A stretch of DNA of 64,000 nucleotides from a virus. Position 1 is the stretch's first letter. Each line of letters begins with the position of its first letter. The stretch is from positions 1 through 64,000 of the IMG/VR virus record IMGVR_UViG_3300009034_000007; one strand, written 5' to 3'. Positions 33,467 through 59,278 of the stretch are shown here, one piece after another. The notes beneath the pieces were generated by a model. It did not search any database, was not told where the DNA came from, and was given only the letters and a program-made list of their open reading frames with translations. The position numbers were made by a program, and so were the translations under genes.

Positions 33467-33666
33467 TTCGCAAGGGCAAATGTAATCGGTGTGGTAAATG
33501 TTGTGATTATGGGGGTAAATGGCCGTGTGAATATTTAAGATTTGATGGGGATATTGCTATATGTAATATCTATGAAAATCGACCTAAAGTGTGTAGATTA
33601 TATCCACAAAGACTCGAAGATGTGTTTGAAGGGTGCGGATTTTATTTTGAAGAGGAGGGTATATGA
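33460..33666 (+). CDS. YkgJ-like CxxCxxCC metal-cluster protein
   Basis: [28 protein letters not shown]. Confidence 0.8.
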
Positions 33667-34721
33667 GTAAGATAGCTTTGATTACTGGTATAACGGGTCA
33701 GGATGGTAGTTATTTAGCTGAGTTACTGCTTCACAAAGGATATGAAGTTCATGGCGTGATGCGTAGGTCTAGTACTTTTAGCACGGAACGTATTGAACAT
33801 ATATTTCCGAAACTAAAGTTACATTATGGTGATCTGTCAGACGGGACCAATTTAGTTAATCTATTAAATAATATTATGCCTGATGAGATTTATCATCTAG
33901 GTGCTATGTCTCATGTCAGAGCATCATTTGATATTCCTGTCTATACTGGCGAAATCACAGGTTTGGGTACGACTAGGCTTCTGGAGGCTATTAGACATAT
34001 TGGATTTCGTCCTCGTTTCTATCAAGCTTCAAGTTCGGAAATGTTTGGGGCTAGTCCTCCACCACAGGATGAAGAAACTCCATTTCGTCCTCAAAGTCCA
34101 TATGCCGTAGCAAAAGTGTATGCTTATTGGACTGCTAGAAACTATCGTGATGGCTATGGATTGTACATTACCAATGGAATATTATTCAATCATGAAAGTC
34201 CACGTAGAGGAAAAACTTTTGTAACTCGAAAGATTACAAGAGCTGTAGCACGAATTAAAGCAGGGTTTCAAAAGGATTTATACTTAGGTAATTTAGATTC
34301 TAAACGCGATTGGGGATATACTCCAGAGTATGTTGAAGCTATGTGGAAAATGGTGCAAGAAGATATTCCAGATGACTATGTACTAGGGACAGGAGAAACT
34401 CATACTGTAAGAGAGTTTGTACGAGAAGCTTTTAGCTACGCCGAATTAGATTGGAAGAAGTATGTAAAGTTTGATAAGCGATATCTGCGACCCACAGAAG
34501 TTGATGTTTTACAGGCTAATCCTACTAAGGCTAAGTATAAGTTAGGTTGGGAGCCTCAAATTAGTTTTTATGATCTTGTGAAAATTATGGTTGACGCTGA
34601 TCTACAAGCCACTGGTCTAAATCCCATAGGTAAAGGTGTGGACATTGTTGATGGGCGATTTAAATTTGGTTGGCATACATGGGATAATAGCGTGACAGCC
34701 TTATTAAGGGAGGCACGATAA
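33663..34721 (+). CDS. gmd: GDP-mannose 4,6-dehydratase
   Basis: [42 protein letters not shown]. Confidence 0.97.
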
Positions 34722-34722
34722 T

Positions 34723-37849: not shown

Positions 37850-38085
37850 TGAAAGTAGGAACAACGAATTGGTTATTTGTTATAGGATTCTTCCTGTCTT
37901 TAATAGGATTCATCCTATTGATAATGGGAATGGGTGGTATGTCGTTGCCAGTTTTGGGTACTGCTGATAACGTAGTAATTTGTGGAATTTTTGTACTGGT
38001 GTATGCTACAATGTTTGTTTGGTCAAGTAATTACGTAATAGTAATTTGCCCCAAATGCGGCTTTAAAGGAGATATAAACGGATGA
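37849..38085 (+). CDS. two-TM membrane protein with C-terminal CPKC
   Basis: Hydrophobic helices, coupled start. Confidence 0.55.
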   Translation: MKVGTTNWLFVIGFFLSLIGFILLIMGMGGMSLPVLGTADNVVICGIFVLVYATMFVWSSNYVIVICPKCGFKGDING

Positions 38086-38547: not shown

Positions 38548-38548
38548 T

Positions 38549-40102
38549 ATGACAGTTACAGCAAGTGTTGATGGTTATAATTTTATAAATGGTTGTGAAG
38601 CGGCGGCAGATTGGACAGGTGAATCTCCTGCCGATGTAGCAGATTTCTTTAAATATGGAACTCAATGTGTAGGATTTGTATTTCGTGGTGTCGGTGATAA
38701 TGATTCATATATTACTGTTGCTGAGGATTTATCAGGAACAGCTCATCTTCGTTTTTGGTTTATGACAACTGCTATAAATGAACTAAATACGGACGCTAAT
38801 GGTGGAATTCAGGTTTATCTTAGTGATGGAGCTAATACTGGTTATTGGTATGTAGGCGGTAGTACGACTTATCCTGGTGGTTGGTATAATATTGTTGTTG
38901 ATTTATCAAGAGATGTAGATTCTGGTACTAAACCTACCATGACTGCTATTACTACTCTTGGGATTAGAATTAATCAAACAGCGGCTCCTAAAAACGTTCA
39001 AAATACCTGGATTGATCATATCTATGCAGGTAACGGTATTATATCTTACGGAGATGATGGGGGAAGTGCATATGATCTTGATGATATCTTAGCAATTGAT
39101 CAAAATACAACCTACGGATGGGGAATACTTAGAAAAATTAGTGGTATTTACTATCTCAATGGTAAGCTTATTTTTGGAGATGCGTCTGGTACAAATTCAT
39201 GTGAGTTTGCTGATGCAAGTGAAATTATTATTTTTGAAGATCGTAAGGTTAATGATGCTTTATATTCAATTACGGTGGTAGGAAATGGTACTGGTACAAC
39301 TAATTTTAAATTAGGGACTAAAGCAGGTACGGCTGGTGTTGAGGGATGTGTTATTAAAGCTGAAGGAACAAAAAAATACGATGTAATTTGTACGGATACT
39401 GATGTAGCTTATTTCAAACTGTACGGTTGTACATTCTTGGATGCCGATGTAATTCAATTACCGTTATATAGTTCTGGTAATCGAGAGATGTTAAACTGTA
39501 ACGTTGAAGCTTCGGCTCAGATTGAAGCATCGACATGTACAATTACAAATTTAAATATTATTACTGCGGATACGCGTGGAGTTCTTATTACGGGTGAAAC
39601 GTTCTATATGACGGATTCTGCATTAATAAACTGTCCGTCAGGAATTCACATTAATACATCAGGTACTTTTAATCTCGATGCCATACAATTTATTAACTGT
39701 GTGTGGGATATCGAAAATTCAAGTGCTGGTAATGTAATTATCAATAACTTACCTGGTTCTAATGCCAGTACTTATGTAAATACAGGTGGGGGTACAGTAA
39801 CAATTCAAACATCCGTTTATATTACTATCGATGTGGAAGATACGGATGGAAATCCGATTGTAAGTGGAAGGGTAGCAGTTTATAAAACTTCTGACGACTC
39901 TGAATTAATGCGGGAGTATACAACTGCGGCTGGACAGGCTCAAGAAGTATTTAATTATGTTGAAGATACAGATATCTATGTACGAATTCGGAAATCATCT
40001 GTAGGGGAAACGAGATATTATCCTTATAATACAACGGGTGAAATAACAGATGGTGGATATACCTTGACAGCCGTAATGATTGAAGATACAATCGTACAAT
40101 AA
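38549..40102 (+). CDS. probable virion fibre/spike protein (beta-rich)
   Basis: 517 aa, G/T/N/D-rich, beta-helix-like central part. Confidence 0.55.
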   Translation: MTVTASVDGYNFINGCEAAADWTGESPADVADFFKYGTQCVGFVFRGVGDNDSYITVAEDLSGTAHLRFWFMTTAINELNTDANGGIQVYLSDGANTGYWYVGGSTTYPGGWYNIVVDLSRDVDSGTKPTMTAITTLGIRINQTAAPKNVQNTWIDHIYAGNGIISYGDDGGSAYDLDDILAIDQNTTYGWGILRKISGIYYLNGKLIFGDASGTNSCEFADASEIIIFEDRKVNDALYSITVVGNGTGTTNFKLGTKAGTAGVEGCVIKAEGTKKYDVICTDTDVAYFKLYGCTFLDADVIQLPLYSSGNREMLNCNVEASAQIEASTCTITNLNIITADTRGVLITGETFYMTDSALINCPSGIHINTSGTFNLDAIQFINCVWDIENSSAGNVIINNLPGSNASTYVNTGGGTVTIQTSVYITIDVEDTDGNPIVSGRVAVYKTSDDSELMREYTTAAGQAQEVFNYVEDTDIYVRIRKSSVGETRYYPYNTTGEITDGGYTLTAVMIEDTIVQ

Positions 40103-40118
40103 TTAGGAGAAAAGAAAT

Positions 40119-41804: not shown

Positions 41805-41827
41805 TATTCTGAGAAGGGAGGAAAATC

Positions 41828-42535
41828 ATGGCTCTTAGTTTTGACTTCCAGAATACTATCATTGATATTAGTTCTCCGCAAGTTGAACTTGATGTTCAAG
41901 ACTTAGTAAATGCAATAAGAACTGTTGAAGCAACAGTTGAAGGTATTGCTTACCCTCACATACTCAATGCCTCTGGAAAAGAGGTTCTTGCAGACCCCGC
42001 TGGTGGGACTGTGAGGGTAAGTATTACCGCTGATATCCAGGGCGATTGGCAATTAAGATTTTGGGTAGGAGACTATACCGCAACCATTTATGGTGGAAAC
42101 TTGGTTGGTGGTCTTGGTGATGACCCTGTTGCTTATAGTGCTGGTGTTCAAGTTTTGCTAATTCAGTCGGCGTATGCTACTCTTGTTTCAACAGGTGAAA
42201 GTGGTTTGACTAGTGAAGAAAGTACGAAATTGTTATCGCTCGATACAAGTGGTATTGCTTCAGTTCAATCTGATGTGACAGATGTACTAACGGATATTGC
42301 GGCCTTGCAAGTTGACATAGATGCTCTGATAGTTTCTATTGAAGATGCTCTTGGTTTGATTGGTGAAAATGTTAAATGGAGTGGTATGGCATTTGACTCA
42401 AATAAAAACTTGATCTCGGCTGTCATAACACAGTATACGGATAACACATTAGTTACACCGCGTAAAGTATGGCAATTAACAGCTACATATGATGGTCAAA
42501 GTCGTATAACAAGTTATCAACTGAAGGAATACTAA
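41828..42535 (+). CDS. probable virion structural protein
   Basis: 235 aa with short coiled coil. Confidence 0.55.
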   Translation: MALSFDFQNTIIDISSPQVELDVQDLVNAIRTVEATVEGIAYPHILNASGKEVLADPAGGTVRVSITADIQGDWQLRFWVGDYTATIYGGNLVGGLGDDPVAYSAGVQVLLIQSAYATLVSTGESGLTSEESTKLLSLDTSGIASVQSDVTDVLTDIAALQVDIDALIVSIEDALGLIGENVKWSGMAFDSNKNLISAVITQYTDNTLVTPRKVWQLTATYDGQSRITSYQLKEY

Positions 42536-43160: not shown

Positions 43161-43170
43161 AGGAGGACGT

Positions 43171-44082
43171 ATGAACGTTCTATTTGTGGGCGGGGGTAGA
43201 AGGATTGAATTAGCCAAACGATTCATAGCAAGGGGCTACAAGATATTTGCTTATGAGTTACATTCCAATGTTCCTATTAGTTCTGTTGCACGAATCGTTG
43301 AAGGTTGCAAATGGACAGATGAAGGACTTTCCGATCATCTTCTTGCAACTATACAAGAACATAATATTGATTTAGTGTTTCCCCTACAAGATGAAGCTAT
43401 TAGACTTTGTGCTGAATTATCTGATGTAGGAGCTAAAGTTGTAGCATCCAATCCTGAAACGGCTGATATCTGTTTTGATAAATTTGAATTTGAAGACTTT
43501 ATAATGGGAGTTCTTCCTAATGTCTATCCAGTAGATATTAGCCAGTATCCAAAGATTATAAAACCTCGGTTTGGCTTTGGGTCGCGAAATGTAAGAATTG
43601 CCAACAGTCTTACGGATATTATGAGATGGGAAAAGGAGTTAGGAGATAGATTATACCTTGATAATGTTATTCAAAGAAAAATAGAGGGCGTGGAATATTC
43701 GGTAGATTCATATTTTGATCGTGATTGTAAATGGGTACAATCTGTTCCTAGAACTAGAATACGAGTGGGAAGCGGAGAAGTAATTACTAGTAAAACAGTT
43801 TACAATCCAAAATTAAGATCGCTTACAGCACTGGTTGGTGAAAAATTAGGAATTCGTGGACCATCAAATACGCAATGGATTGTTGATAAACACGGACATC
43901 CATATATTGTAGAGGTAAATGCGAGATTTGGTGGTGGATACACACTCAGCATGGAAGCAGGCATGGATACAATTTCCTTTATTGAGTATGATTATTTTGG
44001 AATAGGAAAATCTAGAGTTATTCATCCAATTACCTATAATCTGCTCTTAGAAAGGAGCTATAGGGATCATTATTATGGATAA
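43171..44082 (+). CDS. carbamoyl-phosphate-synthase-like ATP-grasp protein (capsule-locus type)
   Basis: GGGRR, CFDKF, IKPRFGFGSR, EYSVD, EVNARFGGG. Confidence 0.85.
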   Translation: MNVLFVGGGRRIELAKRFIARGYKIFAYELHSNVPISSVARIVEGCKWTDEGLSDHLLATIQEHNIDLVFPLQDEAIRLCAELSDVGAKVVASNPETADICFDKFEFEDFIMGVLPNVYPVDISQYPKIIKPRFGFGSRNVRIANSLTDIMRWEKELGDRLYLDNVIQRKIEGVEYSVDSYFDRDCKWVQSVPRTRIRVGSGEVITSKTVYNPKLRSLTALVGEKLGIRGPSNTQWIVDKHGHPYIVEVNARFGGGYTLSMEAGMDTISFIEYDYFGIGKSRVIHPITYNLLLERSYRDHYYG

Positions 44083-44887: not shown

Positions 44888-46168
44888 ATGGATAATTGGC
44901 AAGAGCATGTCAAAATTTTAACTGTCAATAAAACCTATCAAGTTCCTACACGTGGGGAATCCATTCTAGACCCTGCTGGTCGTGTATTTGAATTTGAAGA
45001 CGGAATTTATCGAGCTATTACGAAAGGATATGTTCCAACCGCTAAAGCTATTTTAGCTTCACCTGTGATAGATAAAATATTTGAGGTAGGATTAATTGAA
45101 ACTGAATTTTGTGACTTACAAGTAGACGGTTACGCCGCAGTTTTGAAGCATCGGAAGATTGATTTTCAATCACTTTCTTACGAGTGGTCGCCTTCTACGA
45201 TTAGGGATGGAGCTAAAATGGTAGCCGCTTTAGGGCGGATCCTCTATGAAAATGGATATAGTTATCGAGATGGGAATATGCCCAATGTTTTAATTGATTA
45301 TACTAATCCTAAATTTATAGATTTCACATCACTTTTAGCCATTGGAAGTCTTCCTAACAGTAGACGCTTAGAACCTCTAGATTTTCCGTGGGAATTCAGT
45401 GGAATTTATATTCACAATTGGTTTAGTTTACTATCAAAATATACATCAAACATAACAAAAGATGGAGCCTACTCTATACGAAAAGATTATATAAATGACG
45501 CTCTTAGTTTTTTTGACGCTATTGTTGATTATCTAGATAGTGCTGAATTTGAATATGAAACTACGGAGTGGCGAGGATATGGAGGAAGCAAATTTAATTT
45601 TCAAGATTTGAACCCAAAGCATCAAGCTTTTTATGATTTTCTTGTTACAATACAATCTGATCATGTTAATACTTTATTGGATATAGGAGGGAATAAGGGA
45701 TTATATAGTCTTGTGGCACAAGACTTAGGTTGGAAAGTGGTAAATTTTGATATTGATATTTATTCAATTATGCAGTTATATGAATATCTTAAAGGAACAG
45801 ATAAACAAATTTTACCGCTGGTTATAAATTTTCTAAGTCCAATGAAACGCATACGAGGGCTTCCATCCGCTGTCGAGCGATTAAAGTGTGATGTAACTGT
45901 ATTCTTAGCTCTAATACATCATCTATGTTTACGGCAAGGTATTATATTTGAGCAGATTATTGATCAACTTGATGCGTTTACTAAATACTATTGTATAGTA
46001 GAGTTTATTCCGCTTGGCGATAAGCATGTAGGGAACTGGGCTAAACCAAGTTGGTATCGGCAACAAAATTTTGTTGTAAAAATGAAGGAACGGGGATTTC
46101 AATTGATCAACCAAGCACCATCGTCACCATCACCACGAACAATGTTATTATTTGCAAGGAGTATATAA
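44888..46168 (+). CDS. NoeA-like SAM-dependent methyltransferase with kinase-like N-terminus
   Basis: DPAGRVF, SYEW, D....NV...P.FIDF, LDIGGNKG, LALIHH. Confidence 0.7.
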   Translation: MDNWQEHVKILTVNKTYQVPTRGESILDPAGRVFEFEDGIYRAITKGYVPTAKAILASPVIDKIFEVGLIETEFCDLQVDGYAAVLKHRKIDFQSLSYEWSPSTIRDGAKMVAALGRILYENGYSYRDGNMPNVLIDYTNPKFIDFTSLLAIGSLPNSRRLEPLDFPWEFSGIYIHNWFSLLSKYTSNITKDGAYSIRKDYINDALSFFDAIVDYLDSAEFEYETTEWRGYGGSKFNFQDLNPKHQAFYDFLVTIQSDHVNTLLDIGGNKGLYSLVAQDLGWKVVNFDIDIYSIMQLYEYLKGTDKQILPLVINFLSPMKRIRGLPSAVERLKCDVTVFLALIHHLCLRQGIIFEQIIDQLDAFTKYYCIVEFIPLGDKHVGNWAKPSWYRQQNFVVKMKERGFQLINQAPSSPSPRTMLLFARSI

Positions 46169-46467
46169 TGGATACGATAGGCGGGCTAATCGATAAGTTG
46201 ATTACAGTCGATATGAAAACGTGGTATGCTCAAGAGGATTTTTATAAAATCCGAAAGATGTCATACGATGAATTTAGAAATATTTATTTCAATGAAAAGG
46301 GAATGAAGGAATTATGGGAACAATTCCAAACAGGGATTGATCTCAATCTTCAACGTAATGTTATCATCGATGAGCTTGATCAAACTTTACATGAAATGAT
46401 GAAGGCCGTAAAGGAAGGAAAGCAGGTTGAGGGTAAATTCATTCAAAAGAAACATAAAACATACTAG
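46168..46467 (+). CDS. helical hypothetical protein (DUF4254-like)
   Basis: MDTIGGLIDKL...LNLQRN..IDELD; start at 46168. Confidence 0.55.
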   Translation: MDTIGGLIDKLITVDMKTWYAQEDFYKIRKMSYDEFRNIYFNEKGMKELWEQFQTGIDLNLQRNVIIDELDQTLHEMMKAVKEGKQVEGKFIQKKHKTY

Positions 46468-46478: not shown

Positions 46479-47042
46479 ATGTCACTGAGCTTAACTGCGG
46501 AAAATTTAAAAAATCACGTCCACACTCGAATTTTCTTTGAGACTGGAACTTTTACAGGGGGAGGAGTATCCGTTGCTAGGGCGGTAGGTTTTGAGAGGAT
46601 CATCAGTATAGAAATATACGAGCCTTATCAAAAAGCTAACATAAAACGATTTGCGGGTCTTCCTGGTATAGAGTTACATACTGGAGATTCTGAAGAACTT
46701 TTATGGCCTATTATAAAAGATATTAATGAACCAATTACGTTTTTTTTGGACAGTCATATAGTTGTACAAACAGGAAATGTGTCAGGTATTAGGGAGATTC
46801 CGTTACTTCAAGAACTTGAAATAATTAGCCGACACCCAATAAAATCACATGTCCTTTTGATCGATGATCGTAGAATGATGGGACATGAGACACATCCTGG
46901 TGGCTGGATTTCGCAGGAATGGACGGATATTTTGGAGGAGCATGTTATGAAATCTATTTATACCATTAATCCTGATTATAATATTTATTATGAGGATACG
47001 GTAAACGGTAAACAAGATTTGATAATTGCTAAAGTTCAATGA
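46479..47042 (+). CDS. class I SAM-dependent methyltransferase-like protein
   Basis: FFETGT..G.G, SIEI, GDS, FFLDSH, LIDD. Confidence 0.75.
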   Translation: MSLSLTAENLKNHVHTRIFFETGTFTGGGVSVARAVGFERIISIEIYEPYQKANIKRFAGLPGIELHTGDSEELLWPIIKDINEPITFFLDSHIVVQTGNVSGIREIPLLQELEIISRHPIKSHVLLIDDRRMMGHETHPGGWISQEWTDILEEHVMKSIYTINPDYNIYYEDTVNGKQDLIIAKVQ

Positions 47043-47671
47043 AACGAGCATACTTTGTGGTAGGACCAGAGAGTGCGGGAAATCGTATGATGACTCAAGC
47101 ACTTCTTGAAGCTAAAGATTTTGGGGCTGGAGGAATACCAATTGAACATTATGAAGATGGTAACATAGCCTATGAGTGGAATCCTTGGTGGGTAAAGAAA
47201 ACCGAAGAAGGATTTGTACAGGATATATTAAATAGCTTACTAACAGCTCCCGACGAAATTATTTTCTTTTTGAGTGTACCAAGAAAAGCTTGGCCTAACA
47301 AGGAATGGGTTCCAATAGCTCAAATTGTTCAGGCTATGCTGGATAAGAGTTATAAAGTTTATCCAATTGTAATGTCACGATTTTGGAAGTATGTAGCACG
47401 ATCACAGGTTACTAGAGGCCATGTTCCTACTTATGATTTAGCTAAAAGGTATGTCCGTAGAGCTTATCGTTATATACTTGATGAATTAGATTTAGTTAAT
47501 GTACCAATGTATTTAGTGGAGTACGAACAATTTGTTACAGAACCCGATTATCGTAGAGCTGTACTAAAAACGCTTGATGTTGATGGAGAACCACAAATGG
47601 AGTTCTTCAATGCAAATCTGAAGTATAAGGAAGGCGAGGATGATATCAATATACAGACCATATCTACCTAA
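47039..47671 (+). CDS. sulfotransferase-like P-loop protein
   Basis: VVGPESAGNRM, MSR......SQ, VEYEQFV..P. Confidence 0.5.
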   Translation: MKRAYFVVGPESAGNRMMTQALLEAKDFGAGGIPIEHYEDGNIAYEWNPWWVKKTEEGFVQDILNSLLTAPDEIIFFLSVPRKAWPNKEWVPIAQIVQAMLDKSYKVYPIVMSRFWKYVARSQVTRGHVPTYDLAKRYVRRAYRYILDELDLVNVPMYLVEYEQFVTEPDYRRAVLKTLDVDGEPQMEFFNANLKYKEGEDDINIQTIST

Positions 47672-48749
47672 AGGTATGTTTAAATATGCTTATGATGCGT
47701 TGGAATCTACATGGATTTCATCACAAGGTAAGTATATGAACCAAGTACCAGAAATGTTAGAAGAGGCATTGGGAGTAAAATATGCCTTGCTATGCAATAA
47801 TGGTACATCAGCTATGCATCTTGTAGCAAGAACCTTAAAATATAAATATCCTGATATCAAGGGAATCCTAGTTCCAAATAATGTATATGTTGCGGCATGG
47901 AACGCTTTTCTGTTTGATAAAGAATTTACTTTATATCCGATTGATGCTGATGTTTACACATGGAATGTAGACATATCAAAATTACAAGCTAATGCTGATA
48001 AGGCATATGCGATCTTATGGGTACATAATCTAGGAAATACAATCGATGCTCCACAAATGCGACGGTATTTTCCTGAACATGTGTTTGTTGAGGATGCATG
48101 TGAGGCTTTTGGTGGAACTTATCTAAATCGAGCGCTCCATGCAGGAACAGCATCATTCTGTTCAGGGTTATCATTTTTTGCCAATAAAAACATAACTTGT
48201 GGTGAAGGTGGAGCCTTTCTTACTAATAGTTTAGAGGCATATAAATATGCTAGATTGTTATGGGGGCAGGGTCAGTCGGCTACAAAGTTTATTCATGATG
48301 ATCTTGGTTACAATTATAGAATGACAAACGTACAAGCGGCAATTTTGCGTGGTCAGTTGGAATATGCTGTTGAGATCATGGAGATGAAAACCGAGGTTTT
48401 TAATCGATACTTTGAAGCATTTACGAAAGAACCTACTCTGCGAGTACAACAGACAATTGATGGTGGTACTCATTCATTATGGATGTATGGGGTGCGGATA
48501 CCTGGAAATCCTGGATATGATCGAGCTAAGGAGTTCTTTGACCGACATCATATTGAAACACGACCAATGTTCTATCCAATTACGCGTCATAAACATCTTA
48601 GTCACATTGAATGTGAAACGGACGTAGCAGAACTTCTAGCTCAGGAATGTATTGTTATCCCATCATATCCAGAACTTGCAATGGAAAAAGAAATACAAGA
48701 TTATATCATTAAAAAGGTGATAGAATATAGTAGGGAGGGATGGAGATGA
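47640..48749 (+). CDS. DegT/DnrJ/EryC1/StrS sugar aminotransferase (perosamine-synthase-like)
   Basis: WISSQG, NGTSAMHL, EDACEA, SFFANKNITCGEGG, GYNYRMTN. Confidence 0.92.
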   Translation: MISIYRPYLPKGMFKYAYDALESTWISSQGKYMNQVPEMLEEALGVKYALLCNNGTSAMHLVARTLKYKYPDIKGILVPNNVYVAAWNAFLFDKEFTLYPIDADVYTWNVDISKLQANADKAYAILWVHNLGNTIDAPQMRRYFPEHVFVEDACEAFGGTYLNRALHAGTASFCSGLSFFANKNITCGEGGAFLTNSLEAYKYARLLWGQGQSATKFIHDDLGYNYRMTNVQAAILRGQLEYAVEIMEMKTEVFNRYFEAFTKEPTLRVQQTIDGGTHSLWMYGVRIPGNPGYDRAKEFFDRHHIETRPMFYPITRHKHLSHIECETDVAELLAQECIVIPSYPELAMEKEIQDYIIKKVIEYSREGWR

Positions 48750-48916
48750 CTCAAGAGGAAAAAATAGAAATTGTGGAAGCAAAACTACCTGTGTATAGAT
48801 GGAAAGTTAGGGTTTTACCTGCAATTGATATTTGTACAGAAAAACGACCTAGTAGATGGGTACGGTTTTGGCAACGATTTTTTTTGAATTGGGTATGGGA
48901 GGAACTGGATGTTTAG
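48746..48916 (+). CDS. small hypothetical protein (56 aa)
   Basis: Manual translation MTQEEKIE...; RBS and overlaps at both ends. Confidence 0.5.
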   Translation: MTQEEKIEIVEAKLPVYRWKVRVLPAIDICTEKRPSRWVRFWQRFFLNWVWEELDV

Positions 48917-49808
48917 GAGATGTGTCTTCTATAACTGGTATGGAAACGGCGATCTGTTCAATTCTAGAGAATTCGTCAAAGATATCATGATGCAATTTCG
49001 TGATTTAGGTGTCAATGAATTTTATTATGCACATGGTAAAGTGCCACGATTTTTTGAGGATATCGATGACCTACAGTATATGCGTATCAATGAATTTTGT
49101 GATAACTCAAAACATTACAATTTTGCTGGTACAGATGCGTATGTGGATATATATATTAATACATGGATTGGCTTAGAAGCTAAATATGTCTTACCTGGAA
49201 TTGGGTGTACTATTCGTAAGAATCGTGAAATGTACAATGATATGTTTGCTGAGATGAACCTTTCCATTCATCTAGATAAAGATTATCTGGATTATCTCCC
49301 ACAAATTGATTTTTCCAAGATTAATCCAGACGCTATTAATCGAATGAACCTGTGGTTGTCTCAGCATCTAACTAAGAAAATTATAATTGCCAATGGACCA
49401 GTTCATTCAGGGCAAGCTGAAAACTTTGATATGAATCCGATTGTAGATATGATAGCGACTGAGTATCCAAATCGTTTGATTTTATATACTCAACGATTTG
49501 ATGCTGTACAGAAAAACGCAATTTATACAGGGGATATTACTCAAACTGAGGATGATTTTGACCTAAATGAGATTGCTTATCTGAGTTTAAATGCTGAGGC
49601 TGTGATTAGTCGAGCATCTGGACCTGCTACTTTTACTCAAGTTAAAGAAAATTGTCTAGATAAGCACATGAAATACATAGTATTTTCATACGGTCCCGCA
49701 GTTACATATTTTGCGTATCCTGACCATATACCAGCACAAATTCATTGGTCGGAGGCTACGGATAAGGATGAAATTATGGAAGTGATAAGGGAGGTATTAG
49801 ATGAGTAA
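48909..49808 (+). CDS. putative GT-B glycosyltransferase-like protein
   Basis: GNGDL near N-terminus, ISRASGP near C-terminus (GT9-like); cluster context. Confidence 0.45.
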   Translation: MFRRCVFYNWYGNGDLFNSREFVKDIMMQFRDLGVNEFYYAHGKVPRFFEDIDDLQYMRINEFCDNSKHYNFAGTDAYVDIYINTWIGLEAKYVLPGIGCTIRKNREMYNDMFAEMNLSIHLDKDYLDYLPQIDFSKINPDAINRMNLWLSQHLTKKIIIANGPVHSGQAENFDMNPIVDMIATEYPNRLILYTQRFDAVQKNAIYTGDITQTEDDFDLNEIAYLSLNAEAVISRASGPATFTQVKENCLDKHMKYIVFSYGPAVTYFAYPDHIPAQIHWSEATDKDEIMEVIREVLDE

Positions 49809-50700
49809 AACAGTTGTTGGTATAGTGACTTTCGGTAATTTACCTTTTACTAAATTGGCTATTGAGGGAGTACAAGCTACAGTTAAAAAGCCGTATGAAA
49901 TTTTCGTGGTGGTTGGTAAGCCAGGAGATATCGAAACTGCCTCGTACTTAGCGGAAAAAGGAATCAAACATGTTGTTCATGATGAGAATTGGGGATTTCC
50001 ATATTCATTGAATGATATTTATGATTTCACATGGAAGGATAATGATAATGACTATTTGGTTATCATGGGAAATGATGTAATCCCATACCCTAAAGCCATT
50101 GATGCATTGATTGAAACAGCAGATAGTCGGGAGTTTGAATGGGTATGTGCTAGTCAATATGATGTTCGAGACTTGTTGAAAACTCATCCAGAATTTCGAC
50201 CTTATTTCAATGCTAGTTGTAACGTGACAGATTTCAGCCATAGATGTTGGGAAACATTTACAAATTGGGATAGACCCATGAATGTTATTGGGCCTGGAAT
50301 GAGTGATGTTCATAACTTGGCTTTATATAAAAGATCAGTTTTCGAGAAGGTTGGTTATATTGATGTGAATTTCTATCCAGCATATTTTTCGGATAATGAT
50401 TATTGTCGTAGAAGTGCAAATCTTGGTATATCATCGTGTACTTTAACAAATGCTATGTATTTTCACTTCTGGAGTAGAACTATTTATCAAGAAACGGGTG
50501 GTTCAAACCATGAATTTTTTAGGGCAAACGCTTCATTTTATAATATTAAGTGGGGTGGCCCATTTGGAAGTGAACGTTTTACTGTTCCGTTCAATGGTAT
50601 TGAATATCCACTTTGTCCTGGAGTTAATTTGAAACCTGAAACAGAAATTTTTGACAGGGGACGTGAAAAGGATATTATTAAATATTGGATGTATAGATAA
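49801..50700 (+). CDS. GT2 family glycosyltransferase
   Basis: IVTFG, NWGF..S.N, MGNDV, VGYID.NF.PAYFSDNDYCRR. Confidence 0.85.
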   Translation: MSKTVVGIVTFGNLPFTKLAIEGVQATVKKPYEIFVVVGKPGDIETASYLAEKGIKHVVHDENWGFPYSLNDIYDFTWKDNDNDYLVIMGNDVIPYPKAIDALIETADSREFEWVCASQYDVRDLLKTHPEFRPYFNASCNVTDFSHRCWETFTNWDRPMNVIGPGMSDVHNLALYKRSVFEKVGYIDVNFYPAYFSDNDYCRRSANLGISSCTLTNAMYFHFWSRTIYQETGGSNHEFFRANASFYNIKWGGPFGSERFTVPFNGIEYPLCPGVNLKPETEIFDRGREKDIIKYWMYR

Positions 50701-52271
50701 TGCCTCCTATTGAAAAAATTACTCATGAAGATTTAATACTCTATGAAATAGTAAGACATCCAGTTCTTTTTGGTGAGTTTTTCAGAAATATTGACTTAAG
50801 ACCGCATGAGGAACCTTGGGAATTTACTATCTACCAAAAGGAATTCATATGTGATTTTGCAAATTATGTGAGTATTTGCTGTGGTCGTACCGTCGGGAAG
50901 ACGGAAGCCCTTGTAAGTGTTCTAATTTGGATTTTGGTAAATAATGTTTATAGAGGTGATTATGTAGTTTACACTGTACCCAATAAAGTCCACCTAGACC
51001 CTGTATGGGATGGCTTAGTAAAGTTCTTTCGAGGTAACTCGATCATATCTCAGTTTGTTGAGAAACGAAGTGGTATCAACTCATCTGATCATAATATTAA
51101 ATGTAACAATTATGCGTCACTTGATTGCCGAATTGCTGGCACGACTGGTACTGGAGCCTCAGTTGTAGGTATGCACACTCCTTTCGAGGTTTTGGATGAG
51201 GCGGGATTCTATCCGTGGGGGACTTGGATTGAATTACAACCTACTTTGAATACATGGGAACAGGGTTATCGACAAGTTGTATCAGGAGTTCCTACGGGTG
51301 TACGAGAGCAAAATGTACTTTACTATACAGATGAGATGGATGATGACTTTACCAAACATCGTATCTCAGCACACCAGAACCCTCGATACACTGAGGAAGA
51401 TGAGGCTAGAAACTTAGAGAAATATGGTGGTGTAGATGGACAAGACTATATCCATCACGTCTTAGGACGGCATGGAACACCTGTTTTTGCTGTATTTGAC
51501 CGAACATTAATGTCAATTGTGGAATATCCTGTATATAAAATTAAGATTGATGGTATCAAAATTACAGATGTGTCAGAAATTTATAGCAAAATCTCAAATG
51601 TTCCTCCGATTGAAAAACGGCATGATTATGTAATAATGGGAATTGACTTAGGTTACACTGACCCAACAGCCATTCATATTTTATATAATTCTGGTGGAAC
51701 TATAAAATATCATGCTCGGATTCAGCTAACAAAGGTTCCCTATCCTTTACAAAAACAAGTAATTAGTTTCATTGATGAACGATTTCAAAGACCTGACGTA
51801 ATTGGTATAGATGCTGGTGGTCCTGGTAAACCTGTTGTTCAGGATTTCTTAGAAGCTGAAGAATTTTTACATAAAGACTTCGTGAAGCGAATGATTCCTG
51901 TAGAGTTTGGTTCACAGCTAATTTTAGGACAGGATAATGATGGAAATGATATCAAGGTACGAATGAAACCATTTGCAGTTTCGTTAACTCAGGAATATGC
52001 AAACTCACATCGGATAGTGTTTTCATCCACAGATTATGAATTTATATCAGAACTAGAACGAACAACTTATACTAAGAATCCGAGTGGGGAAATTGTTTAT
52101 CGAACTCTTACGCCTAAAGGTGGACAGAGAGGTGATGATCACCATACAACTGCACTATTATGTGCAATGATAGCACAGTATCAATTGAAAGATGCTATAA
52201 CAAGACAACAGAAGAAACCGAGATTGTATACACCAACTTGGTTACAGAGGAGTAAGTGGATATATGACTGA
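50700..52271 (+). CDS. terminase large subunit
   Basis: CGRTVGKT, VLDEA, SGVP, GIDLG..DPT, DDH; located before portal. Confidence 0.88.
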   Translation: MPPIEKITHEDLILYEIVRHPVLFGEFFRNIDLRPHEEPWEFTIYQKEFICDFANYVSICCGRTVGKTEALVSVLIWILVNNVYRGDYVVYTVPNKVHLDPVWDGLVKFFRGNSIISQFVEKRSGINSSDHNIKCNNYASLDCRIAGTTGTGASVVGMHTPFEVLDEAGFYPWGTWIELQPTLNTWEQGYRQVVSGVPTGVREQNVLYYTDEMDDDFTKHRISAHQNPRYTEEDEARNLEKYGGVDGQDYIHHVLGRHGTPVFAVFDRTLMSIVEYPVYKIKIDGIKITDVSEIYSKISNVPPIEKRHDYVIMGIDLGYTDPTAIHILYNSGGTIKYHARIQLTKVPYPLQKQVISFIDERFQRPDVIGIDAGGPGKPVVQDFLEAEEFLHKDFVKRMIPVEFGSQLILGQDNDGNDIKVRMKPFAVSLTQEYANSHRIVFSSTDYEFISELERTTYTKNPSGEIVYRTLTPKGGQRGDDHHTTALLCAMIAQYQLKDAITRQQKKPRLYTPTWLQRSKWIYD

Positions 52272-53793
52272 AAAAGAAGATAACGTAGTTGTCGAAATGA
52301 CAGCAGAGGAAGAACCAAAAAAGCTTGCTAAAGCCTCGCATCAATATACGATTCTTCAGCCACAAAGGAAAACATCAACTCCGTGGTCCGCACGTGATAT
52401 TGATAAATTAACATTTGATGACAAGAAATGGAAAAATGTTGTTAAGGAATGTAGATATTACTATAAACGTGATCCTTTTGCTTCTACAGTTATCAATAAA
52501 ATGGTCGATTTATCAATTAATAATATTATTGTACGGGAAAAGACAGCACGGAAATCTATTAAGCTTGTTCTGGAGGCCATTAAAGGTGACTTATTGGTAT
52601 TCTTACGGAATGCCGCCTTAGAATATTTGCTTAGTGGATTAGTGGTACCAGAAATTTCGTTTGATGCTTATAACAAGACACAGCTACATGAATTAGGTAT
52701 AAAACGCTTTGAAAGATTAGTGTTACCTTCTGATATGTGGATTCGTGATCCTGGAACTATTGTTGTTAAAGACCCCGTCCTTGGAAGTAAAAAGTCTTAT
52801 TTAGTTGAAATTCCAGATGCATTTAGAACTTTTATTCTAAATAAGGGAGTGTATAGTGATGGTACAAAGGATAAAGAACTTTATAAACAATTAGTACAGG
52901 ATATGCCTGATTTCGTAAAGGCTGTCAGAAAAGGTGAAACAACGCTTCTATTGGATAACCCATTGGTAGTGCAATATCGAACTTTAGCTGGAGAAACATA
53001 TCCAACGCCATATTTATTCTCAGTATTAGAATCTCTAAAACATAAGCGGAATCTTAGGCGAATGGATTATTCTATTGCGGCTCGAATCATTACAGCTATT
53101 ATGCTTGTTCGATTAGGTAATGATGAATATCCTCTAACTGAGGATAACGAAGATCAGTTGGAAGCTTTGAAATTAGAAATGAGATGGCGAGAAACTCAGT
53201 CATCTAGAGAAATGGAACGAATTTTCCAGTTATTCGGAAATCATACATTAGATATTGAATGGGTTTTTCCTGATGTAAAGCCGTTACTTGATGATGTAAA
53301 ATATAAAAATATCAATCAAGATATTGCTGTAGGATTGGGATTTCCTAGAATTTTAATCACTGGAGAAACGGAACGGTCTTTCGCATCTGATCCAGAAATT
53401 GCTACAGTTTCACCAGTTTTAACAATGAATAGGATGCAAGATGCTATTACTCCAATTATGCGACGTATTGTTGATGAAATAGTAGCAGAAAATAATTTTG
53501 GTGGAAATCCAGAAGTAATGTTTGCTCCTATCAATTTAATGGCAGTTTCATCCTTTGTTGAAGGACTTCAAAATCTATATGACACTGGCAACTTATCTAG
53601 GGAAGATTATGCTAGAATATTTGGTTTTGATATATTTGAACAACTACTAAAACGTGAAGTAGAAAATAAACTCCTAGAGAAATTAGATTTAGAGGAGTTT
53701 GCTCCTGTTCCTCATAGTAATGAACCTGAAGTACCAGGAACAAATAAGAGTAAAACTAAACCTAAAAAGAAAAAGAAGAAGGAGGGTGAATAA
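52264..53793 (+). CDS. portal protein
   Basis: 509 aa after TerL; helical, I..GLGFP..L..G, basic tail. Confidence 0.8.
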   Translation: MTEKEDNVVVEMTAEEEPKKLAKASHQYTILQPQRKTSTPWSARDIDKLTFDDKKWKNVVKECRYYYKRDPFASTVINKMVDLSINNIIVREKTARKSIKLVLEAIKGDLLVFLRNAALEYLLSGLVVPEISFDAYNKTQLHELGIKRFERLVLPSDMWIRDPGTIVVKDPVLGSKKSYLVEIPDAFRTFILNKGVYSDGTKDKELYKQLVQDMPDFVKAVRKGETTLLLDNPLVVQYRTLAGETYPTPYLFSVLESLKHKRNLRRMDYSIAARIITAIMLVRLGNDEYPLTEDNEDQLEALKLEMRWRETQSSREMERIFQLFGNHTLDIEWVFPDVKPLLDDVKYKNINQDIAVGLGFPRILITGETERSFASDPEIATVSPVLTMNRMQDAITPIMRRIVDEIVAENNFGGNPEVMFAPINLMAVSSFVEGLQNLYDTGNLSREDYARIFGFDIFEQLLKREVENKLLEKLDLEEFAPVPHSNEPEVPGTNKSKTKPKKKKKKEGE

Positions 53794-54044: not shown

Positions 54045-54076
54045 CCCATGAACCTGTTGTTTATGGTATAATTAAG
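54045..54076 (+). promoter_or_regulatory. putative late promoter, copy 2
   Basis: CCCATGAACCTGTTGTTTATGGTATAATTAAG, matches 31780..31811. Confidence 0.65.
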
Positions 54077-54092
54077 ATAATGAGGAAAGTTT

Positions 54093-55175: not shown

Positions 55176-55205
55176 TAATTGGCAATATTCTAGGAGGAAT
55201 GTTCG

Positions 55206-55784: not shown

Positions 55785-55823
55785 AATTGTGAGCTGAAGT
55801 AATTCGGAGGTTTTAAACTAACC

Positions 55824-56732
55824 ATGAGCGATAAAGAATTTAAGGAAGCCTTGGCGGAATATATGCGTGATCCCGATCAGCGGGACGCGTTTGCTCAGAT
55901 TTTGGTGGAGTTTTTGGAGCCAAGCCATCTTACTACCGAAGTACTTAGCCTACTCTTAGATACACGTTCCTTGGAAGCAGGGGACTTGCTGGTGAAGAAA
56001 GTTCGCAAGGGGATTGAGGTTCGCACCTTAGTTCCTGGTGCTGTCCATTTAGCAAGTGAGATCACGATCTCTGATCGTATCAACTTCATTCTGGACGGTG
56101 CAGATGTGAAAGTCACCTATAATGAGTGGGAACTTGAACGTGGTGAGATTGGTACTGTCGAGAGCATTTCTGAGGAAATGCGAGACAAATTGCGGGATTA
56201 TTTTGTGAATAAAGTTTTCACAGCCCTTACTACAATTTGGAACGCCACTAATACCCCTGACAACTATACGGCTGTTGGTGGGCCTATTACTGGTGCGGCT
56301 CTCGAAAACGCCATTAATCGTATTAACTTAACAAGCCCTGGTGCAAAACTAATCGTAGGCGCACGTGCGTCTGTCACCCCGATTACCAAATTTGGTGCAT
56401 TCTGGAGTGATGGTACGACCACAGGCTACGCAGAAGAGCTAATCATGAAGATTTTCCAAGATGGTTGGCTTGGACGCTACTACGGTGTTCCCGTTCTTGC
56501 GTTAGAGCAGGTTTATGACAACCCTGAAGATTATCAGGCATTGATCCCCACTGACAAAGTGCTAGTGATTGGAGAAAAAGTTGGCGAGTTTATTAATTAC
56601 GGCGACGTAAAGACTAAACAATGGACCGACATGAACCCAACACCGCCACAGTGGTACCTGGAACTCTATCAGCAATTCGGTATGATTATCGATAATGCTA
56701 ATGGGATTTACGTACTAGGCAATATTGGCTAA
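55824..56732 (+). CDS. major capsid protein
   Basis: 302 aa, strong RBS, G.LGRYYGVPV pattern, followed by terminator. Confidence 0.8.
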   Translation: MSDKEFKEALAEYMRDPDQRDAFAQILVEFLEPSHLTTEVLSLLLDTRSLEAGDLLVKKVRKGIEVRTLVPGAVHLASEITISDRINFILDGADVKVTYNEWELERGEIGTVESISEEMRDKLRDYFVNKVFTALTTIWNATNTPDNYTAVGGPITGAALENAINRINLTSPGAKLIVGARASVTPITKFGAFWSDGTTTGYAEELIMKIFQDGWLGRYYGVPVLALEQVYDNPEDYQALIPTDKVLVIGEKVGEFINYGDVKTKQWTDMNPTPPQWYLELYQQFGMIIDNANGIYVLGNIG

Positions 56733-56758
56733 AGTTATTAAATAAACAGAGCAATTAC

Positions 56759-56790
56759 GAGGGGGAGAAAATCCCTTCTCCCCCTCTTTA
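56759..56790 (+). terminator. intrinsic terminator after major capsid gene
   Basis: GAGGGGGAGAA / TTCTCCCCTC hairpin followed by TTT. Confidence 0.6.
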
Positions 56791-56807
56791 AAAAATAGGA
56801 GGATATT

Positions 56808-57329: not shown

Positions 57330-57332
57330 TAA

Positions 57333-57830
57333 ATGTCAATTACAGGTACTAACCTCAGTTACCTAATTCCGCGATTGCGGTTACATCTAGGCGATTTTAC
57401 TATGCCTTATAGATATTTAGATGAGTGGCTTGAAACCTCTCTAGTGGCGGCTGTTGAACTATTAATGCCCCGATGGAATTATAAATATCTATTGAATGAA
57501 ACTACACATGATGTAGAACGCAATCTAACGATTAGATTTTTATTCCAATCGCCCCCAATTGTGGAGCGAGGGGATATTTGGCCCATTGTGCTACAAGCGG
57601 CTATTATTATCAAGGAAGGTTCATTAGAAGGTCAATCATGGAACTTCGCATCCTGGCGTGACGCTGAAATCGCTTATTCTAACTTAGAATCAGCACGTTC
57701 AAAAGATGCATCTCTACAGCGGGATATCGAACTATTAGATACAATGCTTCCGTGGAGATCAAAGAGACTGGCTTTACCAATTAAAGGTCATTTACCTGGA
57801 TACCTTGATAATTTGTACGAGCATGATTAG
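57333..57830 (+). CDS. head-tail adaptor
   Basis: LI..LRL.LGD...PY.Y.DE.L pattern; position. Confidence 0.6.
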   Translation: MSITGTNLSYLIPRLRLHLGDFTMPYRYLDEWLETSLVAAVELLMPRWNYKYLLNETTHDVERNLTIRFLFQSPPIVERGDIWPIVLQAAIIIKEGSLEGQSWNFASWRDAEIAYSNLESARSKDASLQRDIELLDTMLPWRSKRLALPIKGHLPGYLDNLYEHD

Positions 57831-57955
57831 CAAAAGAGTGTAAAAAGGTTACAAGCGAACGCGGATATTCTCTTTTGCTATGAGGTTCTGAACCTGCCGC
57901 CTCGTATCATATTATAAACCGAGGCGGCCATAGAAATTTATAGGGAGAGGATGGT

Positions 57956-59278
57956 ATGGGCAGATCACAAGCAAAAAGGCGTAAGACTGTGGAAGACATA
58001 GAAGACGTGGAAAATAAAGAGCAACCCAAACCAACAATTTTAATTATTGGAGATGGTGTTGCAACAACTGGTTTTGCTAGGGTTTTACATAGTGTATTTC
58101 AACATCTTACTGACCAGTACCACATTCATCACCTTGCCATAAATTACCGAGGCGATCCCCACGGATATGATTGGAAAATCTATCCCGCAATGTTAGGAGG
58201 GGATATCTACGGATTAGGCAGACTTCCAGAGATGATGAACGTTCTAAAACCTGATCTTGTATTTATCTTGAACGATTTATGGGTGCATCCAATGTACCTA
58301 GATAAATTACAAGAATATAAAGATGTAACGAAAGTTATTCTTTATATGCCTATTGATGGTGGACCAGTTGATCCTATATGGGTGAAACAAATCCGTGGGG
58401 CTGATAGATTAATTTTCTATACAAGATTTGGAAAAGGTGTTGTTGAGGATGCTATTGCCAAGCTTCAAGCCGATGAGTGGGAAGAAATAACTGATACTAC
58501 GGCTACAAAAGTTTTACGCAAAAGAAAAGTTCCTTTGCGATTTCCTAAAATCCATATTGTCCCACATGGGATTGATACACGGTTATTTCATCCCGTAGAT
58601 AAAGAAAAAGCAAAAGCAGAAATTTATCCTGAGAATCCAGATTTCAAGGGTGATGCTTTCATTGTATTAAATTCTAATCGAAATCAACCCCGAAAACGAA
58701 TCGATATTACAATGAAAGGGTTTGCTCAATTTGCGGAAGATAAACCATCAAATGTAAAATTATATCTTCACATGGGCGTTGAGGATATGGGTTGGAACGT
58801 TATCAATTTAGCGAAACTCATTGGTATTGAAAATCGATTGGTTTTGTCAAGTACACAAAATACGATTCCAGGTATTCCTGACGATAGACTAAATCTTATT
58901 TACAATGCATGTAATGTCGGTATAAATACATCGGTAGGCGAAGGATGGGGTCTATGTAACTTTGAACATGCCGCGACTTTTGCGGCTCAAATTGTACCCG
59001 ATCATTCGGCATGTAGCGAAGTCTGGAGAATAGATGGGAAAGAAATGGCAGAATTTCTACCCGTTGAGTACTGGCTTACAAATGAACGAGTCTTGACTGA
59101 GGGAGGGATTGTTACGCCTCAAGGGGTTGCAGAGGCTTTAGAACATCTGTACTCAGATCGGGAGTACTTAGATGAAATGGCTCAACGAGCTTTTGATCTG
59201 ACACGATCACCCGAATATCAATGGCAAAGTGTGGCTAAACAATTTAATGACATTTTTATGGATGTATTAGCAGAATGA
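57956..59278 (+). CDS. GT4 family glycosyltransferase
   Basis: TGFARV, VPHGID...F.P, NRNQPRKRID, YNA..V....S.GEGWGL..FE. Confidence 0.9.
   Translation: MGRSQAKRRKTVEDIEDVENKEQPKPTILIIGDGVATTGFARVLHSVFQHLTDQYHIHHLAINYRGDPHGYDWKIYPAMLGGDIYGLGRLPEMMNVLKPDLVFILNDLWVHPMYLDKLQEYKDVTKVILYMPIDGGPVDPIWVKQIRGADRLIFYTRFGKGVVEDAIAKLQADEWEEITDTTATKVLRKRKVPLRFPKIHIVPHGIDTRLFHPVDKEKAKAEIYPENPDFKGDAFIVLNSNRNQPRKRIDITMKGFAQFAEDKPSNVKLYLHMGVEDMGWNVINLAKLIGIENRLVLSSTQNTIPGIPDDRLNLIYNACNVGINTSVGEGWGLCNFEHAATFAAQIVPDHSACSEVWRIDGKEMAEFLPVEYWLTNERVLTEGGIVTPQGVAEALEHLYSDREYLDEMAQRAFDLTRSPEYQWQSVAKQFNDIFMDVLAE

Follow-up and report, generated by a model that had tools for sequence, protein, structure and literature searches.

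The window analysed here is the first 64 kb of the 96,729-bp IMG/VR record IMGVR_UViG_3300009034_000007, rated complete by CheckV, and it carries a set of sugar genes embedded among the packaging and head genes of an uncultured, long-tailed phage. We propose that these genes direct late, cytoplasmic glycosylation of the virion proteins, a reading to which we assign a probability of about one half. It starts from the gene order (Table 1): a GT4 glycosyltransferase that keeps its place in the head-tail block across the clade, two further transferase genes that lead into the gene for the large terminase (TerL), and upstream of them a cassette, variable between relatives, whose predicted enzymes would make and modify an amino sugar.

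Table 1. Features of the sugar-gene region and neighbouring morphogenesis genes (window positions; aa, amino acids; ORF, open reading frame)
Feature	Positions	Strand	Match or remark
Promoter-like motif CCCAT-N14-TGGTATAATTAAG	31780..31811	+	upstream of sugar/TerL/portal gene run
226-aa gene, 5' edge of variable island	31819..32499	+	possible small terminase, by position only; no PHROG match
68-aa CxxCxxCC ORF	33460..33666	+	4-base overlap with Gmd start; no PHROG match; absent from the preliminary description
GDP-mannose 4,6-dehydratase (Gmd)	33663..34721	+	PF16363, E 1.5e-130
ATP-grasp ligase, PRK12767 / PDB 2pn1 type	43171..44082	+	PF02655/PF15632, E 1e-12
Minimal HAD phosphatase, 97 aa	44075..44368	+	phrog_1238, E 2e-21; TIGR01689, E 3e-12, below cut-off
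LicD phosphotransferase, short form, 172 aa	44365..44883	+	PF04991, E 8e-12
Kinase-like domain (~1-220) and class I S-adenosylmethionine methyltransferase (223-426), 426 aa	44888..46168	+	
99-aa helical protein, DUF4254-like	46168..46467	+	ATG overlaps upstream stop; absent from the preliminary description
187-aa protein (p187)	46479..47042	+	homologues in related cassettes
210-aa P-loop protein, sulfotransferase-like	47039..47671	+	ESM Atlas look-alikes
DegT aminotransferase, GDP-perosamine-synthase-like	47640..48749	+	PF01041, E 6e-59
58-aa ORF bridging DegT and GT-B genes	48740..48916	+	overlaps both; no family match; absent from the preliminary description
Compact GT-B protein, GT9-like, 299 aa	48909..49808	+	AlphaFold2 (AF2) model, pLDDT 90.2
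GT2 glycosyltransferase	49801..50700	+	PF00535, 27.8 bits (cut-off 23.3); stop overlaps TerL ATG
Large terminase (weak match) and portal	50700..53793	+	phrog_675, E 2e-4; phrog_2739, E 1e-13; translationally coupled to sugar genes
Promoter-like motif, second copy	54045..54076	+	upstream of scaffold-capsid operon
Putative major capsid protein	55824..56732	+	phrog_16565, E 4e-16 (function-unknown family); clade marker
GT4 (GT-B) glycosyltransferase in head-tail block	57956..59278	+	phrog_2170, E 8e-38

Conserved transferases and a variable cassette

The putative capsid protein served as the marker of the clade, whose members are uncultured. Searches of IMG/VR gave 108 relatives confirmed by tblastn, from which 80 were kept (57-81% identity) and 68 remained after de-duplication. 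By tblastn synteny, every one of the 41 non-redundant relatives whose sequence extends to the site carries GT4, flanked in 39/39 by the same pair of small genes. Inserts next to it in relatives are mostly HNH/LAGLIDADG endonucleases and fibre-like genes; one is a capsule-type gene of the NKWYS kind. Of 34 relatives, 29 have the GT2 gene just 5' of TerL; the GT9-like gene occurs in 16 of 25, never without GT2.

Upstream of the GT9-like/GT2 pair the genes vary from phage to phage and constitute a swappable sugar-tailoring cassette. A Pfam tally of 144 ORFs, taken from the 5 kb upstream of TerL in 30 relatives, returned methyltransferases of the class I (16), FkbM (11) and sugar C-methyltransferase (6 and 4) families, together with GT2 (13), GT25 (2), DegT (7), Gmd (4) and epimerase (5) matches. 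B12-radical SAM (3), GNAT (2), Sulfotransfer_1 (2) and MptE-like (2) proteins made up the other entries. The 226-aa gene marks the 5' edge of this island: its homologues stand directly before ATP-grasp or Gmd in relatives and abut TerL in one of them (L110). The island would thus have been inserted between this gene and TerL, and it seems, by position, to sit between a gene for a small terminase-like (TerS-like) protein and TerL. The labels 'TerS', 'adaptor' and 'closure' used for genes of this region are positional guesses.

From ATP-grasp to portal there are thirteen genes, with intergenic distances of -8, -4, +4, -1, +11, -4, -32, -10, -8, -8, -1 and -8 bases. Such spacing amounts to one predicted translationally coupled chain that includes TerL and portal.

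The three glycosyltransferases

The clade GT4 profile was compared with the PDB. It matched chlorovirus NY-2A B736L (3oy2/3oy7) over its full length (positions 10-394) with an E-value of 2.6e-37, and no T4 DNA glucosyltransferase was retrieved at E <= 0.01. Across 36 sequences, residues E329 and E337 (E-x7-E) and the basic phosphate-binding block NRNQPRKR show no or almost no variation. These features suggest a retaining-type GT-B enzyme akin to B736L/A546L, with a predicted catalytic role. The genes on either side of GT4 (57333-57830 and 59275-59721) have no family match in Pfam or PHROGs. In two relatives GT4 appeared to be fused to its upstream neighbour, an artefact of a tblastn alignment that ran through a stop codon. 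GT4 follows this neighbour by about 15-30 nt in most relatives and by 125 nt in the phage studied here. The longer gap holds a 9-bp GC-rich inverted repeat (57870-57925; GCCGCCTCG ... CGAGGCGGC), whose loop is AT-rich and 15 nt long; a T-run is lacking.

The compact GT-B protein has no Pfam, NCBIfam, PHROGs or PDB-sequence match and is not a sequence member of GT9. Its AF2 model, however, is nearest to GT9 structures, with VIA Z values of 15.5 (3tov), 14.2 (WaaF, 1psw), 13.7 (WaaC, 6dfe) and 13.2 (TibC, 4rap). The superpositions span residues 1-299, with 234-246 residues aligned, and the family alignment has 27 invariant columns. By fold the protein probably works like a GT9 enzyme, without being filed as a member of that family. 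Full-length homologues (29-30% identity) occur in the huge GenBank phages LR756501, LR756503 and LR756504 (636-735 kb), the first two of which hold two copies each. The C-terminal part of the GT2 protein is homologous to gp015 of cyanophage S-CBS4 (E 5e-8).

Predicted synthesis of an N-acylated amino sugar

Profile searches confirmed the identity and position of Gmd, ATP-grasp, HAD, LicD, DegT, GT2 and GT4 as given in the preliminary description of this region, whose 'GT-B-like' protein also proved right by fold. Gmd is intact, covering positions 1-332 of the 332-position PF16363 profile with 435.9 bits (cut-off 27). The best PDB matches of the DegT aminotransferase are the Per structures 3bn1, 3dr4 and 3dr7 (E 4e-45), the next family following at 3e-31. 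These structures are Caulobacter GDP-perosamine synthases, and their pyridoxal phosphate-lysine motif aligns with that of the phage protein (SFFANK aligned to SFFGNK). In NCBIfam the top model is of the LegC type and falls below its cut-off, so that the exact GDP-keto-sugar substrate of DegT is a prediction. The context favours GDP-4-keto-6-deoxymannose, since Gmd stands in the same gene run and also beside the DegT module in other viral loci. The best reading of the predicted Gmd and DegT activities is that they would yield GDP-perosamine from host GDP-mannose, a related GDP-keto-sugar being the possible alternative product. A search of the genome found no nucleotidyltransferase of the phage's own; GDP-mannose, and any CDP donor for LicD, must therefore be supplied by the host.

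ATP-grasp matches an NCBIfam model of the PRK12767 type (E 3e-38, below cut-off), and its family alignment (A7) has 31 invariant columns. The HAD phosphatase translation displays the DMDGV (DxDG), YTGR and K...DD motifs. The true start of the 99-aa gene is at 46168, within the 46051-46467 frame; its likeness to DUF4254 comes from the ESM Atlas and is a lead. An ATP-grasp family profile search of IMG/VR gave 35 viral loci. DegT stands alongside in all but one of these, HAD and the 99-aa gene are present too in most, and Gmd is near in 6. By tblastn the 99-aa protein was found in 22 of the 35, with 42-68% identity. Some of these loci lie on contigs of 120-434 kb unrelated to the phage. No match to ATP-grasp was found among GenBank phages by tblastn. 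From this recurrent association we infer, by analogy, that the ATP-grasp/HAD/DUF4254-like trio would modify the amino sugar made by DegT, most likely by using ATP to N-acylate it with a phosphorylated acid, from which the phosphate would then be removed.

In the unrelated large or jumbo contigs (IMG/VR loci L091-L095, L101, L105-L108 and L118-L120, up to 434 kb) the module lies in long one-strand sugar islands with GT2, GT1-type, GT10 fucosyltransferase-like and methyltransferase genes, as well as UDP-glucose/GDP-mannose dehydrogenase genes. In two of the large-contig loci, genes for a tRNA-His guanylyltransferase (Thg1) and an RNA ligase are found near the module.

Predicted tailoring enzymes

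LicD matches PF04991 with 46.2 bits (cut-off 22.6), the match being restricted to the N-terminal motif (positions 4-35 of the 227-position model). It further matches NF045866 (E 8e-19, below cut-off) and, near full length, phrog_36020 (E 4e-10), and it contains a DDDAD motif.

The region had been described as encoding two methyltransferases. One of them, the 426-aa protein, does have a class I methyltransferase domain: its AF2 model (pLDDT 94.8) gave VIA Z values of 16-18 for residues 223-426, and methyltransferase structures took up the whole-model fold matches. It also has a kinase-like domain that had gone unnoted. Its family comprises 43 proteins at E <= 0.001, one of them named NoeA, and D128, N133 and D145 in the N-terminal half, the putative catalytic-loop Asp and Asn and metal-binding Asp, are invariant. 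When the family profile was compared with the PDB, E. coli WbdD was the top match (E 5e-9). The WbdD methyltransferase stretch is matched with an i-Evalue of 3e-4, and profile positions 109-153 align with WbdD 354-397, the kinase catalytic loop, a match that is weak alone (i-Evalue 0.41). We call the protein WbdD-like in predicted function, with reversed domain order and without the coiled-coil ruler, the kinase part being a prediction. By analogy with WbdD it would add methyl-phosphate. It had no match in GenBank phages by tblastn. For the second supposed methyltransferase, p187, searches of Pfam, NCBIfam, PHROGs and the PDB gave no match, and the protein showed no similarity to the FkbM methyltransferase of a relative or to the S-CBS4 methyltransferase.

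The sulfotransferase-like assignment of the 210-aa protein stands as a lead. ESM Atlas look-alikes include Sulfotransfer_1/3 clusters (0.95) and a Sulfotransfer_3 cluster (TM 0.73), and no match was found in Pfam or NCBIfam, including the sulfotransferase families PF00685/PF13469. Its nearest Atlas cluster is an unnamed family of ~185 aa with 9,886 members, 99% of them viral, which looks like a very large uncharacterised phage family. The chemistry put forward in the preliminary description is for the most part supported, and it becomes more specific: Gmd is intact, DegT is Per-like, LicD is present and the WbdD likeness gives a clue to methyl-phosphate, the sulfo step being a lead only and N-acylation by ATP-grasp a prediction.

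Expression and cellular location

The strict promoter-like motif, CCCAT-N14-TGGTATAAT, occurs exactly twice in the 96.7-kb genome, once before the gene at 31819 and once before the scaffold-capsid operon. Promoters that match the sigma-70 consensus perfectly (TTGACA-17-TATAAT, an extended TG in each case) are confined to the divergent early region at 31056-31333, where the + strand has one and the - strand two. This layout fits co-expression of the sugar genes with the morphogenesis genes. A separate canonical promoter, TTGACA-N17-TGGTATAAT, lies at 76206-76265 of the genome, in the short gap behind a gene for a 1,082-aa fibre-like protein, and heads the next gene block.

The absence of transmembrane (TM) segments and of a flippase or Wzy, as first described, agrees with both a hydropathy scan and a scan for polytopic ORFs. 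The cassette enzymes have no TM-like segment except for one borderline window in the methyltransferase domain of the 426-aa protein, and no ORF of the 96.7-kb genome other than the FtsH-like protease has five or more TM-like segments.

Proposed glycosylation system

We envisage a three-tier glycosylation system that would be expressed together with the packaging and head genes and would decorate virion proteins in the cytoplasm before lysis. In the first tier, the GT4 of the head-tail block would put the first sugar on a conserved structural protein. In the second, the TerL-coupled GT9-like protein and GT2 would extend the chain. The third tier would be the swappable tailoring cassette between the TerS-like gene and TerL. 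Here Gmd and the Per-like aminotransferase would convert host GDP-mannose to GDP-perosamine; the ATP-grasp/HAD/DUF4254-like trio, by analogy only, would join a phosphorylated acid to the 4-amino group by acylation and afterwards strip the phosphate; LicD would use a host CDP donor to attach a phospho-linked substituent; the WbdD-like kinase-methyltransferase would place methyl-phosphate on a sugar hydroxyl; and the sulfotransferase-like protein may add sulfate. The scheme builds on observed gene identities, synteny and operon layout, from which we infer in what order the enzymes act, which acyl donor is used and what accepts the glycan.

An initiating enzyme that is conserved together with the structural genes around it, and tailoring that varies, fit a virion target. 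Extended to the whole clade, the scheme becomes more tentative, and we hold it to be somewhat short of an even chance: all members would coat their particles with glycan, the core GT4 starting the chain and the swappable inter-terminase cassette diversifying it, which would give phage 'serotypes' parallel to the diversity of bacterial O-antigen loci. The coat of the phage studied here would then be an N-acylated perosamine glycan with methyl-phosphate.

Alternative targets

Several points weigh against glycosylation of the virion. No Ser/Thr-rich C-terminal acceptor tail or motif was found in the capsid protein, the 192-aa protein or the 398-aa tail-tube-like protein, and a virion protein is an unproven candidate acceptor only. 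All the enzyme families present are also typical of O-antigen and teichoic-acid assembly of the ABC-transporter type, at the cytoplasmic face of the membrane. Late timing is read from two motif copies and from gene coupling. A tblastn search of 50,697 phage records with GT4, GT2 and the GT9-like protein gave no mycobacteriophage match, and the function of B736L is itself unproven (PMC9614988).

The enzymes might instead remodel the host envelope: soluble proteins would alter lipid-linked intermediates of O-antigen, capsule or teichoic acid, and a host transporter would export the product. The effect would be receptor masking against superinfection, or progeny kept from sticking to debris. We regard this explanation, the strongest of the rivals, as unlikely, though with an appreciable chance of being right. 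Gmd/Per, GT4, GT2, the GT9-like protein, LicD and the HAD 'capsule phosphatase' are classic cell-surface glycan enzymes, and the WbdD-like kinase-methyltransferase adds to this profile. WbdD of E. coli O9a acts on an O-antigen made at the cytoplasmic face, whose terminal mannose it first phosphorylates and then methylates. The Staphylococcus aureus prophage protein TarP, a soluble transferase, alters wall teichoic acid without a flippase of its own, and because such enzymes modify wall polymers the missing TM segments do not rule out the host surface, a further point against the virion. In the metagenomic literature, moreover, such genes are usually booked as auxiliary metabolic genes.

The weightiest point against envelope remodelling is the GT4 core gene of the head-tail block, which its presence in 41/41 relatives sets apart from host-directed morons, usually sporadic in distribution. 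The sugar genes are also translationally chained to TerL and portal. No integrase or resolvase, whether tyrosine or serine recombinase, was found in the genome, so that the phage is probably virulent and is not a seroconverting temperate phage. Neither does the genome encode an initiating phosphoglycosyl transferase (Bac_transf), and products made late would probably be short of time to reach the surface before lysis. Host proteins could nevertheless supply the missing functions of surface-polysaccharide assembly (initiation, flippase, polymerase, permease).

Another cytoplasmic target, be it a phage protein outside the virion, a host protein, a small molecule or a product for secretion, or else a non-catalytic role of GT4 in assembly, is improbable in our judgement. 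It would agree with the fold match (Z 13.2) of the GT9-like protein to TibC, which heptosylates adhesin proteins in the cytoplasm, with the lack of a proven acceptor for B736L and with the lack of an acceptor motif in the virion proteins. However, the invariant E-x7-E and the phosphate-binding block argue for a working GT4 enzyme, and its conserved place among structural genes, together with the TerL coupling, points to morphogenesis.

Hypermodification of DNA, in which the transferases would glycosylate a modified genome base around packaging as in T-even phages, RB69/DLP3 and the 5mYOX-dependent clusters, is highly improbable: phage GT-A/GT-B enzymes related to those of lipopolysaccharide and teichoic acid do glycosylate DNA, from clusters that can adjoin terminase and structural genes (bioRxiv 10.1101/2023.12.21.572611; PMC13326640), and a dCMP deaminase is encoded here, but thymidylate synthase (PF00303), C5 cytosine methyltransferase (PF00145) and ParB_N (PF02195) are absent from the complete genome, with positive controls, the methylases present are of the N6/N4 and MT-A70 types, and the GT4 profile leads to B736L rather than to T4 DNA glucosyltransferase. 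Tet_JBP (PF12851) gave no match in the genome, but the control genomes were silent as well, so that this result carries no weight. As judged by the profiles with positive controls, no known route to DNA glycosylation is encoded. We know of no DNA precedent for tailoring by kinase-methyltransferase, LicD or sulfotransferase-type enzymes. According to Pyle et al., ~65% of phage glycosyltransferase contigs have no DNA-modification partner nearby.

Virion glycosylation, the target named in the preliminary description, is thus favoured by the GT4 core, the missing integrase and the absence of DNA-modification hooks, its acceptor side being unproven. The cytoplasmic and late character claimed there is supported indirectly, by the lack of membrane segments, the gene coupling and the two shared motif copies, the timing being read from layout. 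Taken as a whole, the interpretation given there is borne out in part.

Comparison with known systems

To our knowledge, virion glycosylation has been demonstrated only for mycobacterial phages, and it is judged rare elsewhere. Capsid and tail-tube proteins of mycobacteriophages are glycosylated by phage-encoded transferases (Freeman et al. 2023, Cell Host Microbe, as cited in PMC11256854, PMC12619734 and PMC10877033). Mycobacteriophages Che8, Corndog and others share with the present proposal soluble phage transferases, late-gene expression and a glycan coat on capsid or tail proteins. Unlike them, the phage studied here would also make and tailor its own nucleotide sugar, and its GT4 is a head-tail core gene. 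The two have no detectable homology between transferases, the present phage has no evident C-terminal acceptor tail, and its system is a prediction from gene content. Compared with the mycobacteriophage case on record, the system is the more elaborate and is conserved more widely, its virion target being putative; the earlier statement that it goes beyond glycosylation by glycosyltransferases only is fair as far as gene content is concerned.

Chloroviruses reportedly encode Gmd. They also glycosylate their capsid with their own enzymes, and their B736L binds GDP-mannose best (PMC9614988). The preference of B736L (NY-2A; A546L in PBCV-1) for GDP-mannose fits the predicted GDP-sugar pathway of the phage. 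Chloroviruses differ in having eukaryotic algal hosts and N-linked capsid glycans, and the common ground is the GT4 subfamily, not the pathway.

The likeness of the 426-aa family to WbdD of E. coli O9a (PDB 4azs/4azw/4ax8) covers the methyltransferase domain and, weakly, the kinase catalytic loop. In WbdD the methyltransferase precedes the kinase, followed by a coiled-coil ruler and a membrane-binding C-terminus, whereas the phage protein begins with the kinase-like domain and ends with the methyltransferase domain. The Gmd and Per steps of the GDP-perosamine pathway of Caulobacter, E. coli O157 and Vibrio cholerae O1 are both matched in the phage, which has no PerB-type acetyltransferase and carries the ATP-grasp/HAD/DUF4254-like trio in its place. 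Capsule amidation in Campylobacter jejuni HS:2, as studied in the Raushel laboratory, reportedly pairs an ATP-grasp amidoligase, Cj1438, with a HAD phosphatase, Cj1435. The logic would be the same, an ATP-grasp amide link to a phosphorylated partner followed by a HAD step, the likeness being one of reaction logic and not of sequence; in the phage the gene for ATP-grasp shares 8 bases with that for HAD, and the two recur together. In Cj1438/Cj1435 the sugar carries the carboxylate and the small molecule is the amine, whereas in the phage it is probably the sugar that carries the amine.

Among cultured phages, Synechococcus phage S-CBS4 has a GT4 homologue, gp014, with 35% identity over 99% of the length. 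Its gp014-gp016 (GT4, GT2-like gene and methyltransferase) all lie between portal and capsid. In Tetrasphaera phage TJE1 a nucleotidyltransferase, an epimerase, a methyltransferase and a glycosyltransferase homologous to GT4 precede TerS/TerL. S-CBS4, S-EIVl and TJE1 belong to other lineages and differ in their much smaller cassettes, which have no Gmd/Per module. A literature search on the function of the S-CBS4 glycosyltransferase and on phage perosamine pathways found nothing specific. Compared with Wzx/Wzy- or ABC-dependent polysaccharide loci, the phage has no initiating transferase and no polytopic permease-like ORF.

If virion glycosylation is correct, it would be a general, evolvable phage trait reaching well past actinobacterial phages, and many 'auxiliary metabolic genes' now booked as host-directed would need re-reading. 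Variable sugar coats could govern adsorption to debris, grazing, recognition by lectins or antibodies, and particle stability. Candidate new enzymes are the ruler-less WbdD-like kinase-methyltransferase and the compact GT-B protein that belongs to no family; a candidate new module is the ATP-grasp/HAD/DUF4254-like set that accompanies a perosamine-type aminotransferase in no fewer than 35 viral contigs. S-CBS4 provides a cultured handle, with its GT4 and GT2-like pair inside the structural genes.

Genome organisation and neighbouring genes

The first 30 bases of the 96,729-bp record are repeated 100 bases from its end. The minus strand of the first 30.9 kb (1-30.9 kb) encodes, among others, DNA polymerase A, DnaB and RecA, together with three N6/N4 DNA methylases, MT-A70, the dCMP deaminase and an amidoligase/GATase/ATP-grasp set. 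The plus strand consists of a single long gene run from ~31 kb to past 80 kb, with a weak TerL match, portal, a coiled-coil scaffold-like gene, the putative capsid gene and large fibre-like genes; we take its 1,525-aa gene for a putative tape measure. The TerL-portal region had no blastn match in GenBank phages.

At the 5' end of the sugar region, a 227-aa protein with a TTG start (32783-33466) is encoded just before the CxxCxxCC ORF and Gmd; it has no family match and by eye is beta-rich and lectin/LamG-like. The cysteine motif of the 68-aa ORF resembles what we take to be a YkgJ/FliB cysteine cluster. Given its overlap with Gmd, this ORF may encode a member of the sugar pathway or a redox partner. 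The 58-aa ORF between DegT and the GT9-like gene could be spurious.

Between the FtsH module and the sugar cassette (38549-42535) lie genes for proteins of 517, 561 and 235 aa with 16-18% Ser and Thr, which could be fibres or spikes and possible glycan acceptors. No PHROGs or Pfam match was found for these genes or for ten small ORFs. The 517-aa protein has, by eye, the look of a parallel beta-helix. Relative L088 carries homologues of the 517- and 561-aa genes between its TerS-like gene and ATP-grasp.

The capsid assignment is putative: the gene follows portal and the coiled-coil gene and precedes a hairpin with a T-run. This strong GC-rich hairpin (56757-56795; GAGGGGGAGAA...TTCTCCCCCTC, then TTTAAAAAA) stands directly 3' of the gene and is likely an attenuating terminator that sets the ratio of capsid to neck expression.

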